DNA from: Labilithrix sp.
Lineage (GTDB): Bacteria; Myxococcota_A; Polyangia; Polyangiales; Polyangiaceae
Direction: 5' to 3'
Assembly (NCBI GenBank): GCA_044227045.1
Contig: JBGAFW010000028.1
Span: 19,667-83,666, forward strand
DNA: 64,000 nucleotides
The translations under genes were made by a program, and so were the position numbers. A model generated the notes under the pieces. The model was not told where the DNA came from. It searched no databases and saw nothing but the letters and a program-made list of their open reading frames with translations. This document shows positions 50,477 through 57,355 of this stretch, piece by piece. The first letter of the stretch is position 1, and each line of letters begins with the position of its first letter.

Positions 50477-51520
50477 CTAGGGCTGTGGACCAGAGCGGAT
50501 TGGATAGCCGCGGTCACGCCAGACGAAAAAGCCTTCATCGAGGATGGTCACCTTCGTGAAGCCATTCGCCAAGAGCGTGTCAGCGAGGGCCCCCGACTCG
50601 GCGTGGGGGCAAGCGCAGTAGCAGACGAGCCACTTGTCCTTTGGCAGAGCGAAGAGGTAGTCGCTTGCCTCGTAGAAAGGGACATCCGCCGCGCCGGCGA
50701 TGTGCGCTGCGACGTAGTCCGAGGGCGCGCGAGCGTCGAGGAACCCCATCGCCGCGCCGCGCGCAAGCTCTGCGTGAATCGTATCGGCGGGCGTGAACCG
50801 TTGTCCCAGCGCGAACGCCGGCTCAGGACCTTCGGGGTTTTGCACGATTGGGCCAAGTGTCCCCGGAATGGGCACATCACCGGGCGGAACCGGCTTCGCC
50901 CAGCTACGAAGCAGGGCGACGAGATCCGAGACGTCGCCAGGGGTGAGCTCGCTCCACGCCCGCATCGTCGTCCCAGGGCGCCCATTGACGATGGCGTAAC
51001 GAAGGAAGTCGTCGCTCGCGACGTTGAGCAGCTCAGCGTTCGCGAGCCTGACGTTGGGTCCCTCCAAACCCGTTGCTCCATGGCAAGCAGCACATGAGGC
51101 TGCATACTTCGCAGCGCCGCGCGACGCGTCGCCCAGCGCGCCGGCGGGAGCCGTAACGTTTGGGCTCGTCTGCCATGTCCGCATGAACGTGATGATTCGC
51201 GCGATCGCAAGGTCGTCGTAGGGGCCCCCACGCGCGCGACCCCACGCGGACATCGTCGTGCCTGGACGACCACGAGCGATGCTCCGCGCAAGGTAGTCAT
51301 CCGACGCTGTCGCGAGGAACGTCGGGCTCCGGAGCGCGGTGGCGTTGTCTGCCGCGTAACCCTCGCCGTTGCTCCCATGACAAAGAGCGCACGTCTTCTG
51401 GTAGCTCTGCGCTCCTGCCTCGATGTCCGAGCTCGGAGGAGCTTGCGCCTCGTCCGACCGACATCCTGCGTCGAACGTGACTCCGAGAAAGACGAGGGTG
51501 GCGAGTCGTTTGACGTTCAC
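50477..51520 (-). CDS. Dihaem c-type cytochrome fused to a C-terminal rhodanese-like domain, lipoprotein, 347 aa
   Basis: Signal plus Cys. Two CxxCH sites (CALCH, CAACH). The C-terminal ~100 aa have a rhodanese fold pattern with an active-site-loop Cys (LVCYCACPHAESG). Confidence 0.75.
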   Translation of the reverse strand: MNVKRLATLVFLGVTFDAGCRSDEAQAPPSSDIEAGAQSYQKTCALCHGSNGEGYAADNATALRSPTFLATASDDYLARSIARGRPGTTMSAWGRARGGPYDDLAIARIITFMRTWQTSPNVTAPAGALGDASRGAAKYAASCAACHGATGLEGPNVRLANAELLNVASDDFLRYAIVNGRPGTTMRAWSELTPGDVSDLVALLRSWAKPVPPGDVPIPGTLGPIVQNPEGPEPAFALGQRFTPADTIHAELARGAAMGFLDARAPSDYVAAHIAGAADVPFYEASDYLFALPKDKWLVCYCACPHAESGALADTLLANGFTKVTILDEGFFVWRDRGYPIRSGPQP

Positions 51521-51552
51521 GAGAGCTCACTTACCTCGCTGCCACCACGCGA

Positions 51553-52098
51553 TCATTTCGAGGTCGGGTACTTCGCGAGCTTGCGCTGCAAGCTTCGCCG
51601 GTGAAGGCCCAACAGGCGTGCCGCTTGGGTGATGTTTCCGCCGCAATCGGTGAGGATGCGGTTGATGTGCTCCCACTCGGTGCGAGCGAGCGAAGGGACC
51701 GCATGCTCGATCGAGGAGGACTCCGCGGGTGGCCGATGAGCTCGCGCGAAGGCCGCGAGGATATCGTCCACATCCGCGGGCTTCGTCAGGTAGTGCGTCG
51801 CCCCGAGCCGGACAGCCTCGAGCGCCGTCGCGATGCTGCCGTACCCGGTCAGGACGACGACGTTCGTCGCTGGGTCGATCGCTTTGAGCTCACGGACCAC
51901 CTCGAGGCCGGAGGCTCCAGGCATCCGGAGATCGACGACGGCGAGCTCCGGGCTCTCTGCACGCGCGAGCTCGAGGGCGACGGCGGCGTCCGCAGCGGCG
52001 CGCACCTCGAAGCCTCGTGCCTCGAACGCGCGGACGAGGCGTCCGCGCAGCGTCGCGTCGTCATCGACGACGAGCACCGAGAGCGAGGCTTCAACCAC
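51553..52098 (-). CDS. regA: RegA/PrrA/ActR-family response regulator (receiver + Fis-type HTH), 181 aa
   Basis: Receiver motifs VLVVDDD...D..MPG...K. The C-terminal HTH GGNITQAARLLGLHRRSLQRKLAK is near-identical in pattern to the RegA/PrrA HTH. The size matches. Confidence 0.8.
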   Translation of the reverse strand: MVEASLSVLVVDDDATLRGRLVRAFEARGFEVRAAADAAVALELARAESPELAVVDLRMPGASGLEVVRELKAIDPATNVVVLTGYGSIATALEAVRLGATHYLTKPADVDDILAAFARAHRPPAESSSIEHAVPSLARTEWEHINRILTDCGGNITQAARLLGLHRRSLQRKLAKYPTSK

Positions 52099-55240: not shown

Positions 55241-56427
55241 GGGTCTGCGAGCCGCGCATCTTCGAGGAAGGCTCGATCGGTGAGGCTCTCGAGGAAGTGG
55301 ACGAGATCAGACTTCTCTGACTCGGAGATCAAGAACCCCCGCAAGAACTCGCTCTTGAGCGGGCTCTTCGCGCCGTCGCCAGCGTTGGGTCCGCTGTCGA
55401 TCTTGCGCCCACCACGAGCATAGTGATCGATCACCTCACCAAGCGTCGCGATGCTTCCGTCGTGCATGTAGGGCGCGGTGACGGCGATGTTGCGCAGCGT
55501 CGGCGCCTTGAAGCGCCCCATGTCGCTTGGCTTGCCGGAGATGTCGATGAGGCCACGGCTCGTGGCCGGATAGCCGCCCTTCCCATCGACGTTGTAGAGC
55601 GCCGTGTTGTGAAAGGCCGTCTCGGTGATGACCGTTCCTTCATGCGAGACGTTGTCCGCGAAGTTGAAGCTCCCGTGACAGTGGAAGCACTCTGTCCGCT
55701 CGGAAAAGAAGAGATCGCGACCCCGCTTCGCCGACTCGTCGAGGGCAGCAGGATCGCCTCCATGGACGAGACGATCGTAAGCGGAGCCGCCCGAGAGGAT
55801 CGTCCTCTCGAAGGTGGCGATGGCTTTGACGACATGATCGACCGTGATCGGCTCGCCATCAGCGGTGAATGCCTTCGGAAAGCCCTCGACGTAGATCGGC
55901 TCGGAGCGCAATCGAGCCAGCAGGGCGGACTCTTCTCCGCTCAACCCAAGCTCCACGGGCGTGTCGCCGAACATCGGCACGAGCGTCTGCTTCTCGAGCG
56001 TGACGAGAAGGTCGCTCGCCCACGTGAGCGTGCTCGCATACCCAATATTCGTGAGGCTCATCGCGCCTCGTGGGTGCGGTTCGCCGGTCGACCCAAGCGC
56101 GTGCGCGCGCCCGTCTGTGAAGGCTCTCTTCGGATCATGACACGAAGCGCACGAGTACGTTCCGTTCCCCGACAACCGCTTGTCGTAGAAGAGCCGTCGG
56201 CCGAGCTCGACCTTCTGCGCCGAGATGGGATTGCCGGCGGGAACGTTCGGCTTTGGAAAGCCAGGTGGGAGACGCCACGTAAAGTCGCCTTCCACGACGA
56301 TGCTCGCCTCCGTAGCGGCATCTCGTTGAGCGTCGCTGCTGTCGCGTAGGTCGCGGGCTGGGCAGCCCGTCAGCCCCACAGCGATGACGAGGCTACTCCA
56401 CGCGAAACAGCGTTTGCTTCGCCGCAT
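55225..56427 (-). CDS. Dihaem cytochrome c peroxidase family enzyme (MauG/MbnH-like), lipoprotein, ~400 aa
   Basis: CASCH and CFHCH sites. CCP/MauG-like conserved stretches (FYDKRLSGNGTYSCASCHDP; FHNTALYN; PTLRNIAVTAPYMHDGS). Start chosen at MRRSKRCFAWSSLVIAVGLTGC, which gives a lipoprotein signal. Overlaps the upstream gene's 3' end by ~35 nt. Confidence 0.8.
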   Translation of the reverse strand: MRRSKRCFAWSSLVIAVGLTGCPARDLRDSSDAQRDAATEASIVVEGDFTWRLPPGFPKPNVPAGNPISAQKVELGRRLFYDKRLSGNGTYSCASCHDPKRAFTDGRAHALGSTGEPHPRGAMSLTNIGYASTLTWASDLLVTLEKQTLVPMFGDTPVELGLSGEESALLARLRSEPIYVEGFPKAFTADGEPITVDHVVKAIATFERTILSGGSAYDRLVHGGDPAALDESAKRGRDLFFSERTECFHCHGSFNFADNVSHEGTVITETAFHNTALYNVDGKGGYPATSRGLIDISGKPSDMGRFKAPTLRNIAVTAPYMHDGSIATLGEVIDHYARGGRKIDSGPNAGDGAKSPLKSEFLRGFLISESEKSDLVHFLESLTDRAFLEDARLADPWTSP

Positions 56428-57355
56428 CGGGCTGGCCCGTGCTCGGATCAACTCCGAGATGAGTGAGGATGTTCGGGCACTCCGGATCGGTCGCGCCGGA
56501 CATGCATCCGGGCGCCCCGCCCATGTCCATCGTGAGATCGTTTCCGGCCACGAGTGCCTTGTAGTCGACGAGGATCGGTTTCTTCGTTGGGTCGAAGCCG
56601 GTGAGCGTCACCTCGCCCACGTTGGGTCTACCGCACGACGTGACTGCGCCTCCGCGCTGAGGGTCACCGTGGCACTCGGTGCTTCCCAGATGAATGCTGA
56701 AGACTCCTGGGGACATCATGCTGCCATCCATGCCGGCATCCACGCCCATGCCGGAGTCCATACCCATGCCTCCGTCCGTCACGGGGCTTCGGCCATCGAT
56801 GCGCGCGAACTTGTAGCCACCGTTCCAGCTCCAGAAGAGACCACTCAAGTTGAGGGGGGACGGAGCCGTCGCGACGTCGGCGTGGTTGAGATCGAATGGG
56901 ACGCCGATCTTGAGCTTGACGCCCACGTACGCGCCGGACGGCGCTGTTCCCTTCAAGACGCTGTTGACGTCGACCGTCCCGTTCGCGCACGTCCCTGACT
57001 TGTCCTCGAAGTCGAGGAGCCCGACTCCCCTGTACTGCCATTTGCCGTCGTCGGTGAGCGTCATAGGGACCTCCGCGCCCGCCGCGCTGACGAGACGAAC
57101 GTCGTGAACGTAGATCCTGAAGTCGAGGGGGTGAATCGTCGCGGAGGTTGTTCCCGCACCCGTGATGGGTCTCGCGCACGAGAACGGCGCGTCGCCAGCG
57201 CGGGCCTCGAACGTCAACGTGACGTCACCTCCAGCCTGAGCACCGACGTCGGGTGAGCTCGCGTCATTCCCCAAAGTCGCCGTGGCATCCTCCGAACAGG
57301 CCGCGACCACGACGAGCGCCGCGACAGGAAGCGTGAGCCTTCCGAGAAATCGCAT
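56393..57355 (-). CDS. Secreted Cys-motif protein consistent with an MbnP-type partner of MbnH-like dihaem enzymes ('metallo-mystery pair'), 320 aa
   Basis: Lipobox VVAAC. Eight Cys in motifs FSCARP, GTCANG, STECHGD, TSCGRP and APGCMSGATDPEC. A Gly/Met/Asp-rich loop (GGMGMDSGMGVDAGMDGSMM). Sits immediately upstream of, and overlapping, the dihaem peroxidase gene, which is the canonical P-then-H order. Confidence 0.55.
   Translation of the reverse strand: MRFLGRLTLPVAALVVVAACSEDATATLGNDASSPDVGAQAGGDVTLTFEARAGDAPFSCARPITGAGTTSATIHPLDFRIYVHDVRLVSAAGAEVPMTLTDDGKWQYRGVGLLDFEDKSGTCANGTVDVNSVLKGTAPSGAYVGVKLKIGVPFDLNHADVATAPSPLNLSGLFWSWNGGYKFARIDGRSPVTDGGMGMDSGMGVDAGMDGSMMSPGVFSIHLGSTECHGDPQRGGAVTSCGRPNVGEVTLTGFDPTKKPILVDYKALVAGNDLTMDMGGAPGCMSGATDPECPNILTHLGVDPSTGQPDAAKQTLFRVE

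Follow-up and report, generated by a model that had tools for sequence, protein, structure and literature searches.

A candidate copper-handling module of Myxococcota: an MbnP/MbnH pair, a Cys-tipped outer-membrane barrel and a RegB/RegA-type redox system in Labilithrix

What is an MbnP/MbnH gene pair, of the kind found in methanobactin operons, doing beside a redox two-component system in a soil myxobacterium? The question is raised by seven minus-strand open reading frames (ORFs), here g1 to g7, at positions 50477–57355 of a 64,000-nucleotide (nt) window of Labilithrix sp. (contig JBGAFW010000028.1, positions 19,667 to 83,666 of the forward strand; the window is the whole stretch analysed). 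The ORF list and a motif check confirmed all seven genes and every motif quoted in a first-pass annotation made from the sequence, and the run has a uniform composition of 63–68% G+C. It encodes an MbnP-family protein (g1), an MbnH-family enzyme (g2), a lipoprotein (g3), an outer-membrane barrel (g4), a sensor kinase (g5), a response regulator (g6) and a cytochrome c–rhodanese fusion (g7). We propose that the locus is an envelope copper-handling module, specifically one of copper supply, controlled by a RegB/RegA-type redox system, and judge this proposal evenly poised between right and wrong.

The MbnP/MbnH pair and its outer-membrane companions

The product of g1 belongs to the MbnP family. 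Over the full model length it reaches 125.4 bits against the PF20243 cut-off of 27 and 282.2 bits against the 140 required by TIGR04052 MbnP_like_WxW, and its sole match among solved structures is MbnP 7L6G (expectation value, E, 2e-39). In the alignment to 7L6G, the WxW motif, six Cys, the His of HLGST and the Met of GCMS are conserved, with W175-S-W177 of g1 opposite W-N-W, so the conserved Trp for which the first-pass annotation had proposed a check is in place. This residue is the one of interest in the family, as MbnP co-expressed with MbnH carries kynurenine at Trp174 within WxW, and the modification is required for copper binding (PMC11951088).

Immediately downstream of g1 and overlapping it, g2 encodes the MbnH-type partner. 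The protein reaches 485.5 bits on TIGR04039 'MbnH family di-heme enzyme' (cut-off 362.85) and 174 bits on the MauG model TIGR03791, below its cut-off of 444. The best Protein Data Bank (PDB) chain is 6E1C (396 bits, E 2e-117), labelled only 'Di-heme enzyme' in the search and which we take to be the Methylosinus MbnH structure; canonical cytochrome c peroxidases score at most 126 bits (E 1e-35 at best). Because both proteins pass curated cut-offs and g2 lies far closer to 6E1C, we find neither a g1 outside the MbnP family nor a g2 grouping with ordinary peroxidases, and the identities first proposed for the pair hold.

The lipoproteins of Myxococcus xanthus follow a Lys(+2) retention rule. The lipoboxes of g1, g2 and g3 have no Lys at +2, and because none follows the lipid-modified Cys, we infer that all three are lipoproteins at the outer membrane, facing the periplasm.

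The third gene had been described simply as a lipoprotein. Its lipobox bears this out, but the label is incomplete, as g3 has a predicted MbnP-like fold and forms a conserved core with the barrel. A structure model (predicted local distance difference test, pLDDT, 84) finds its best PDB match by Foldseek in MbnP 7L6G (probability 0.91), and a second, independent method likewise ranks MbnP first in the PDB. Close relatives of g3 share invariant Cys87, Cys143, Met165 and Trp224, and the family-wide hallmark is A-H-x-x-G-(S/T)-P-T-x-(L/I)-G-x-P. Word search returned 28 relatives and profile search 1105 matches among 1.84 billion representatives; all profile matches that were looked up are annotated 'hypothetical'. 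At locus L086, the gene directly after a g3 relative is an MbnH gene by TIGR04039 (493 bits), in the partner-then-enzyme order of g1 and g2.

The fourth gene encodes a barrel with an unusual tip. Its N-terminal peptide, CATCGCGDPTLTAMG, contains CATCGCGD at residues 26–33, and 277 relatives share a near-invariant C-A-x-C-G-C-G-D-P-T-L-T (core C-x-x-C-x-C-G-D-P-T-L). Across 31 sequences, C26 and C29 never vary and C31 is kept in at least 90%. The Cys motif is not a lipobox, because the residue at -2 is often charged; mature g4 probably begins with Cys. The AlphaFold2 model shows a confident 12-strand barrel (pLDDT 88) with a disordered Cys segment, and Foldseek aligns it with FapF (5O67, E 4e-14) and the COG4313 channel (4RL8, E 1e-11) at template modelling (TM) scores of 0.66–0.75. 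Searches of g4 against Pfam (E <= 0.01) and NCBIfam gave no match; some relatives carry a weak precomputed PF13557 match. The possible outer-membrane barrel of the first-pass annotation is thus borne out, but not the MbnT-type TonB-dependent importer that its comparison with MbnPH systems implied: g4 has 300 residues and 12 strands, as against a 22-strand barrel with plug and TonB box, and a domain search of the cluster found no TonB-dependent receptor domain.

In Persicimonas caeni (L085, 8866–9729), the barrel that follows the g3 relative is a distant g4 homologue (E 2.5e-6). It begins with His-His, not CxxCxC, after an AHA cleavage site, placing another candidate metal-binding tip at the same position.

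The RegB/RegA-type system and its predicted operator

Downstream of the barrel, g5 and g6 find their best NCBIfam matches in NF033792 (ActS/PrrB/RegB) and NF033791 (ActR/PrrA/RegA), respectively, and the RegB/RegA-like identity first assigned to them was right in kind. The kinase g5 also matches PF25323, HisKA and HATPase_c, and scores 207 bits on NF045988, below its cut-off of 570. Published RegB hallmarks are a multi-pass membrane domain, a universal GGXXNPF motif, Arg and Gln seven residues apart in the first transmembrane helix (TM1), the H-box and a redox-box Cys about 40 residues after the phospho-His (PMC3000548, PMC8191878). Among the linked kinases of related loci, 40 of 41 contain GGxxNPF and 40 of 41 the redox-box Cys. 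The regulator g6 consists of a Response_reg domain (95 bits), a short linker and a Fis-type helix-turn-helix (HTH; HTH_8, 50 bits), with no AAA+ domain. Its Cys152, within TDCGGNITQAARLL and immediately before the HTH, occupies the position of RegA Cys156; this residue is Ser in Corallococcus and Pyxidicoccus. The HTH sequence PSLAR-EWEHI-R-L-DC-GN-(S/T)-AAR-LG-HRRSLQRKL is nearly invariant in 40 linked orthologues. Judged by these motifs, g5 and g6 are RegB/RegA-type by kind, with every published hallmark though at sub-equivalog scores. We rejected CorSR, the known two-component system for copper in Myxococcus xanthus, as a match, since its regulator is of the sigma-54/NtrC type and its kinase has a periplasmic sensor domain.

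To find a candidate operator, we looked for gapped palindromes in the 280 nt that surround the first gene of every operon containing g4. The search returned TGCG(A/G)C-N5-G(C/T)CGCA at about -45 to -60, and the phylum-wide general form upstream of cluster operons is YGCGRC-N5-GYCRCR. In 1.375 Mb of loci, TGCGNC-N5-GNCGCA occurs 35 times, with 19 matches in the 150 nt upstream of g4-containing operons against 0.14 expected (~137-fold, a figure inflated by related genomes). The upstream matches span Myxococcia, Polyangia, Sandaracinaceae and other lineages, and most of the other matches also border cluster genes.

Within the window, a position weight matrix built from Myxococcia-type boxes gave no match of at least 10 bits, and for this reason the Labilithrix-clade variant, CGCGAC-N5-GCCACG, was identified separately. 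Its core GCGAC-N5-GCCAC occurs exactly twice in the 64 kb against 0.62 expected, once in each of the two promoter regions: box 1 (CGCGACGATCTGCCACG) upstream of g1 and box 2 (CGCGACAATTCGCCACG) between g4 and g5. Looser patterns are uninformative in this GC-rich window, where the GCGNC-N5-GNCGC core and the 17-mer with two mismatches gave 16 and 15 matches, respectively, against ~25 expected.

17-mers of the box 1 family precede MbnP in L002, L003–L006, L009, L083, L084, L085 and L086. A box 2-type site in the same inverted orientation precedes the kinase gene in L004, L005 and L006, so the two-box layout recurs there. Boxes also precede MbnP in Persicimonas and g7 in L083; in L086 they stand before MbnP, CusF, a CcmH-like gene, the g3 relative and the kinase gene. 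A GCG inverted repeat is the reported binding target of PrrA and RegA (PMC4263372). Most likely, g6 binds the predicted boxes, and would thereby control g1–g4 and autoregulate g5–g6, perhaps with g7. A metagenome scan for CGCGACGANNTGCCACG returned at least 120 stretches, none with a cluster gene among the matches listed; since these matches are chance ones, the scan adds nothing to the regulon.

Three observations concern the surroundings of the boxes. Box 1 sits inside a larger imperfect inverted repeat at 57376–57420 (GTCCGCG...CGCGGAC, 16-nt arms, 75% complementary). A small membrane-anchored CcmH-domain protein (PCCY..TLD.HES) recurs beside boxes in L086 (4592–7291), L083 (9360–9686) and L007 (~12200–12730), and no CcmH-like gene was found in the window. 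In L086, the CusF gene, with that of a g7-like cytochrome after it, is also behind a box.

Conservation across the phylum and competing functions

Among the loci listed by a genome scan with the g4 motif there were 108 relatives, all from Myxococcota, as are the 80 loci kept. We scored these 80 loci by tblastn with the seven window proteins and took counts from the 55 in which g4 is flanked on each side by at least 5 kb. The lipoprotein gene g3 adjoins g4 in 44 of the 55, a RegB/RegA-like pair lies within 5 kb in 30, and MbnP/MbnH in 10. About eight gene orders occur (P, MbnP; H, MbnH; 3, g3; 4, g4; HK, kinase; RR, regulator): HK-RR-P-H-3-4 in Labilithrix luteola, P-H-3-4-HK-RR in the window and Pendulispora, P-H-3-4 with a convergent two-component system in L006, 4-3-HK-RR in Myxococcus and Corallococcus, HK-RR-P-H-4-3 in L073, 4-P-H-HK-RR in L040, HK-RR-4-3-P-H in L087 (a marine metagenome contig), 3-H-HK-RR in L086 and P-H-3-barrel in Persicimonas (Bradymonadales). 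From these counts and orders it follows that the conserved core is the barrel with g3, that the redox two-component system is a frequent companion and that MbnP/MbnH is an occasional one. The two-component system, placed by the first-pass annotation merely beside the cluster, therefore does more than adjoin it: its synteny holds across the phylum, and its likely operator precedes the operons.

The same counts bear on the view that g5/g6 is nothing more than the global RegBA redox regulator of the organism, placed here through co-inheritance or because the cassette is one regulon member among many, and not for a dedicated copper function. RegBA systems are global in proteobacteria, boxes in L007 also precede cytochrome c genes and a CcmH-like gene, and 21 of the 55 loci contain g4, 16 of these g3 as well, with neither the two-component system nor MbnPH nearby; two such loci that we checked have unrelated neighbours. 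Yet the linkage survives about eight rearranged gene orders in several classes, and the boxes lie directly upstream of the cassette operons. A global role would also be compatible with copper supply and not opposed to it, as senC sits with regBA. We consider this explanation, taken by itself, unlikely.

In Labilithrix sp. STL-MYX21 (L004, 11366–18181), a second cluster lies 0.5–7 kb downstream of the main module, with three MbnH-like genes, one MbnP-like gene and a g7 homologue on the opposite strand. The Labilithrix lineage multiplies MbnH/MbnP-like enzymes.

The last gene, g7, matches Cytochrome_CBB3 twice and Rhodanese PF00581 (44.9 bits, cut-off 22.2). Both haem motifs and an atypical rhodanese loop, Y-C-x-C-P-H-A-x-S-G, are invariant in 18 family members, and di-haem cytochrome c–rhodanese proteins of this type are common in Polyangia (at least 120 full-length relatives). 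Linkage to the module takes three orders, namely after the regulator (window), after g4 (L083) and as g4-X-g7-HK-RR (L084); in L004 and L007, too, g7 is found close to the cluster, as is a g7-like protein in L086. The cytochrome c–rhodanese fusion of the first-pass annotation is thus present, but its membership in the module is limited to some Polyangia-type loci, mostly of Labilithrix relatives, and in none of the 55 counted loci does it fall within 5 kb of g4. We treat g7 as a clade-specific accessory and possibly a redox partner.

Together with the Cys-rich tip of g4 and the haem enzymes, the rhodanese-like C-x-C-P-H loop might suggest that the substrate is not copper at all, and that the locus handles, for example, reactive sulfur or selenium species or another thiophilic metal. 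The g7 rhodanese matches NF041203, a 'LYCAU' rhodanese-related (seleno)protein family, weakly (50 bits, cut-off 115), its CxC loop does not vary, a CxxCxC tip would suit many soft metals, and one MbnP alone has been characterised biochemically. We nonetheless find this reading highly improbable. The biochemistry of that sole MbnP shows copper binding (PMC11951088), g7 is absent from most loci, CusF and Cu/Zn superoxide dismutase genes are neighbours in L086, and the His-His tip of Persicimonas fits a metal site better than sulfur transfer.

If the metal is copper (or silver), the module could instead serve detoxification, with MbnP and g3 sequestering periplasmic Cu(I), the barrel releasing it across the outer membrane, and induction when copper harms respiration. 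The insert of g1, placed between WxW and the HLGST His, is rich in Met, Asp and Gly and resembles the Cu(I)-scavenging Met motifs of resistance proteins. In L086, a box precedes CusF, which is a periplasmic Cu(I) chaperone of the resistance type, and RegA is itself a copper-binding protein (PMC9147068). Several findings set this explanation back, and we think it unlikely to be correct. In a comparison of MbnP across loci, the Met loop is confined to one clade: it occurs in the Labilithrix clade, in L009 and partly in L002, and is absent elsewhere. No P-type ATPase, resistance–nodulation–division pump, multicopper oxidase or periplasmic copper-sensing kinase was found in or near the cluster, the copper-tolerance regulon of M. 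xanthus uses the different, sigma-54-type CorSR, and methanotroph MbnP/MbnH accompany uptake genes (PMC3621798).

In the copper-supply module that we favour, MbnH would use peroxide-derived bis-Fe(IV) to oxidise the WxW Trp of MbnP to kynurenine, completing a His/Met/kynurenine copper site, and may act on g3 too. The three lipoproteins would probably stand on the inner face of the outer membrane beside the barrel, whose thiol-rich N-terminal segment would bind Cu(I) and pass it through or from the channel. RegB would sense the redox state of the quinone pool via GGxxNPF and its redox Cys, and RegA would then bind the palindromes, so that the copper module would be expressed according to respiratory status. 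Its likely purpose is to provide copper for periplasm-facing cuproenzymes such as haem-copper oxidases. A copper context is seen in L086, where CusF too has a box ahead of it and a Cu/Zn superoxide dismutase gene adjoins. In the Labilithrix clade, g7, as a periplasmic di-haem cytochrome c with a C-x-C-P-H domain, may maintain the proper redox state of copper or of the Cys motif.

A number of findings weigh against copper supply under redox control. Uptake of the metal, its export and its sequestration are all compatible with the sequences. The cluster contains no inner-membrane copper transporter, Sco/SenC or PCuAC; a Sco/SenC domain was also not found in the gene tables of L001, L002 and L083–L088, and co-transcription with senC is accordingly not seen. 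Most g3–g4 pairs have no MbnH within 10 kb. Profile–profile comparison (hhalign) of the g3 family with MbnP yields a 13-column patch only, at 4% probability, and because it shows no sequence signal, the case for homology is one of fold; g3 moreover has no WxW, and conservation of its Met165 and Trp224 does not extend to distant relatives. On the regulatory side, g5 and g6 score below the cut-offs of their best models (285 bits against the equivalog cut-off of 350, and 171.8 against 250), myxobacteria use menaquinone and the RegB site was defined with ubiquinone. The operator, with its inflated enrichment, was assigned by position, palindromy and analogy.

We further offer, as a tentative idea that is doubtful at present, a more specific version. 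In it, g3 would be a second, phylum-wide family of MbnH partners with its own A-H-x-x-G-(S/T)-P-T site, docking on a small Cys- (or His-) tipped outer-membrane channel. Together they would form a TonB-independent copper route across the outer membrane, expressed according to the redox state of respiration under a RegBA-type system whose operator is sharply defined, and would constitute the myxobacterial copper supply to respiratory oxidases.

Gene boundaries, neighbouring genes and precedents

Coordinates of the genes, motifs and predicted operator boxes are collected in Table 1. The g1/g2 overlap is 59 nt for the maximal g2 ORF or 35 nt from the ATG at 56427; the latter matches the annotation in L. 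luteola and is the likely start. Further overlaps are 16 nt (g2/g3), 4 nt (g3/g4, ATGA) and 8 nt (g5/g6), and 32 nt separate g6 from g7. The sole real gap in the g1–g6 run lies between g4, with its stop at 53577, and g5; it measures 82 nt to the maximal g5 ORF and ~139 nt if g5 starts at GTG 53437. The latter start is more likely because the conserved box 2 covers the first five codons of the maximal ORF, and it probably is the true one, giving 448 residues against 447 in the L. luteola protein. Public gene calls P0121 (g3; 200 residues against 254 here) and P0152 (g7; 258 against 347) are shorter, the former losing the signal peptide and lipobox and the latter the first haem domain, and look like start-codon mis-calls. 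Exact look-up of the NCBI products P0121 (window-identical) and P0165 (the L. luteola g7 homologue) returned no record. Scans for sigma-70 promoters and terminators were at or below chance, and Rfam gave no match on 50000–58000 at E <= 0.1.

Table 1. Genes, motifs and predicted operator boxes of the Labilithrix locus, numbered by window position
Feature	Window position (nt)	Strand	Protein (residues)	Description
Operator box 1, CGCGACGATCTGCCACG	57392–57408 (core 57393–57407)	-		predicted; ~52 nt upstream of g1 ATG, in 99-nt divergent intergenic region
g1	56393–57355	-	320	MbnP-family lipoprotein, predicted to bind copper
g1 VAAC		-	17–20	lipobox
g1 WSW	56825–56833	-	175–177	WxW motif
g1 Met/Asp/Gly-rich insert	56711–56776	-	194–215	motif
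g1 HLGST His			222	conserved residue
g1 GCMS Met			285	conserved residue
g2	55225–56451 (maximal TTG ORF)	-		MbnH-family di-haem MauG-like enzyme
g2 LTGC		-	27–30	lipobox
g2 CASCH	56137–56151	-	101–105	haem motif
g2 CFHCH	55675–55689	-	255–259	haem motif
g3	54476–55240	-	254	lipoprotein, unnamed family, predicted MbnP-like beta-sandwich fold
g3 VGGC		-	Cys33	lipobox
g3 A-H-x-x-G-S-P-T	54902–54925	-	106–113	family hallmark
g4	53577–54479	-	300	predicted 12-strand outer-membrane beta-barrel
g4 N-terminal motif, CATCGCGDPTLT	54369–54404	-	26–37	directly after AxA signal-peptidase site
Operator box 2, CGCGACAATTCGCCACG	53479–53495 (core 53480–53494)	+		predicted; between g4 and g5, opposite orientation to box 1
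g5	52091–53437 (likely GTG start); maximal ORF to 53494	-		RegB/PrrB/ActS-type membrane redox sensor kinase
g5 RWGAVVGQ		-		TM1 R-x6-Q, published RegB hallmark
g5 GGPSNPF	53081–53101	-		quinone motif, published RegB hallmark
g5 HELGTP (HELGTPLGTI)	52709–52726	-		H-box, published RegB hallmark
g5 redox-box Cys		-		41 residues after phospho-His, published RegB hallmark
g6	51553–52098	-	181	RegA/PrrA/ActR-type response regulator
g6 Fis-type HTH	51577–51636	-		HTH_8
g7	50477–51520	-	347	exported di-haem cytochrome c fused to rhodanese-like domain
g7 CALCH and CAACH		-		haem motifs
g7 YCACPHAESG	50591–50620	-		predicted active-site loop

Several neighbours of the run deserve mention. Divergent from g1 (57455–59199, plus strand) are a SurA-N-domain protein and an ORF with three POTRA repeats and no barrel domain among its Pfam matches; these outer-membrane biogenesis factors adjoin an operon for one barrel and three lipoproteins. 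Directly downstream of g7 (46040–50392, minus strand), an aconitase (904 residues, identified by eye) and a class II fumarase place tricarboxylic acid cycle genes next to the redox regulator, and no operator box was found there. Four kilobases from the copper module (61382–62899, plus strand) lies a gene for a secreted right-handed beta-helix protein with a NosD-type ('periplasmic copper-binding protein') Pfam match of 43 bits, with no operator box nearby. Finally, the ORF at 59663–61177 (plus strand, start probably near 60002) fuses a transaldolase (TAL_FSA, 318 bits) to a C-terminal pair of EF-hands, a calcium-binding fusion unusual for a pentose-phosphate enzyme.

For the parts themselves, methanotrophs provide the nearest precedent with their MbnT/MbnP/MbnH set (PMC3621798). 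The MbnP and MbnH of methanobactin operons (TIGR04052/TIGR04039; Methylosinus trichosporium OB3b, 7L6G) share with g1 and g2 the partner-then-enzyme order, the WxW, six Cys, His and Met, two CxxCH in the enzyme and an associated outer-membrane protein. Those operons differ in carrying methanobactin genes and the TonB-dependent MbnT, both absent here, and their control is of the MbnI/MbnR type, whereas here it would be RegBA-type. In the Labilithrix locus, MbnP and MbnH are predicted lipoproteins, MbnP has its clade-specific Met-rich insert, and g3 and a 12-strand barrel are added.

The regB-senC-regA operon (prrB-prrC-prrA) of Rhodobacter and other alpha-proteobacteria likewise joins a quinone- and thiol-sensing kinase and a Fis-HTH regulator to a periplasmic copper-handling protein, and shares GGxxNPF, the TM1 Arg/Gln, the redox Cys, the Cys before the regulator HTH and the GCG inverted-repeat operator. 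Group-1 regBA is invariably co-transcribed with senC, which encodes a periplasmic copper chaperone for cbb3 oxidase, and RegA binds copper as well (PMC9147068). By analogy, the present locus would be the myxobacterial counterpart of regB-senC-regA. In contrast to that system, the copper partner here is MbnP/MbnH with g3 and the barrel and not a Sco/SenC thioredoxin fold, the host is a myxococcote, NCBI scores are sub-equivalog, and the predicted operator is a well-defined 17-mer where the PrrA motif is degenerate.

Two further comparisons concern single components. MopE/CorA and their di-haem peroxidase partners (MCA2590/CorB) of gamma-proteobacterial methanotrophs are also surface or periplasmic copper proteins, with a kynurenine-containing site, a gene beside that of a MauG-like enzyme and repression by copper; they differ in fold, have no sequence relation to g1 or g3, and no RegBA link has been described for them. 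The COG4313 channel Pput2725 (4RL8), the amyloid channel FapF (5O65) and PF13557-type proteins share with g4 the 12-strand fold (TM about 0.7), and 4RL8 and FapF also have an N-terminal segment ahead of the barrel. They are 14–18% identical to g4 and carry hydrophobic compounds or unfolded peptides, and g4 differs in its conserved N-terminal CxxCxC-GDPTL motif and its pairing with g3. A literature search found no publication joining MbnP or MbnH with Myxococc*, though it did not cover the main MbnPH papers, so an earlier neighbourhood survey may list such operons; publications containing 'MbnH' do not describe such an arrangement. The locus differs from the MbnT/MbnP/MbnH and regB-senC-regA precedents in the absence of a TonB-dependent transporter and of SenC, a new partner family (g3), a new barrel type and a different phylum.

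For the physiological role of MbnP/MbnH outside methanobactin operons, the Labilithrix locus and its relatives give a defined and testable context, with a conserved partner set of g3 and a barrel with a putative metal-binding tip, the known signal logic of RegB/RegA and a precise candidate operator. If our proposal is true, the regBA-senC coupling of respiration sensing to copper supply reaches into a further phylum and works there with copper proteins of a wholly different kind. Small outer-membrane metal channels would gain a new type, and MauG-like enzymes a new candidate family of substrates.

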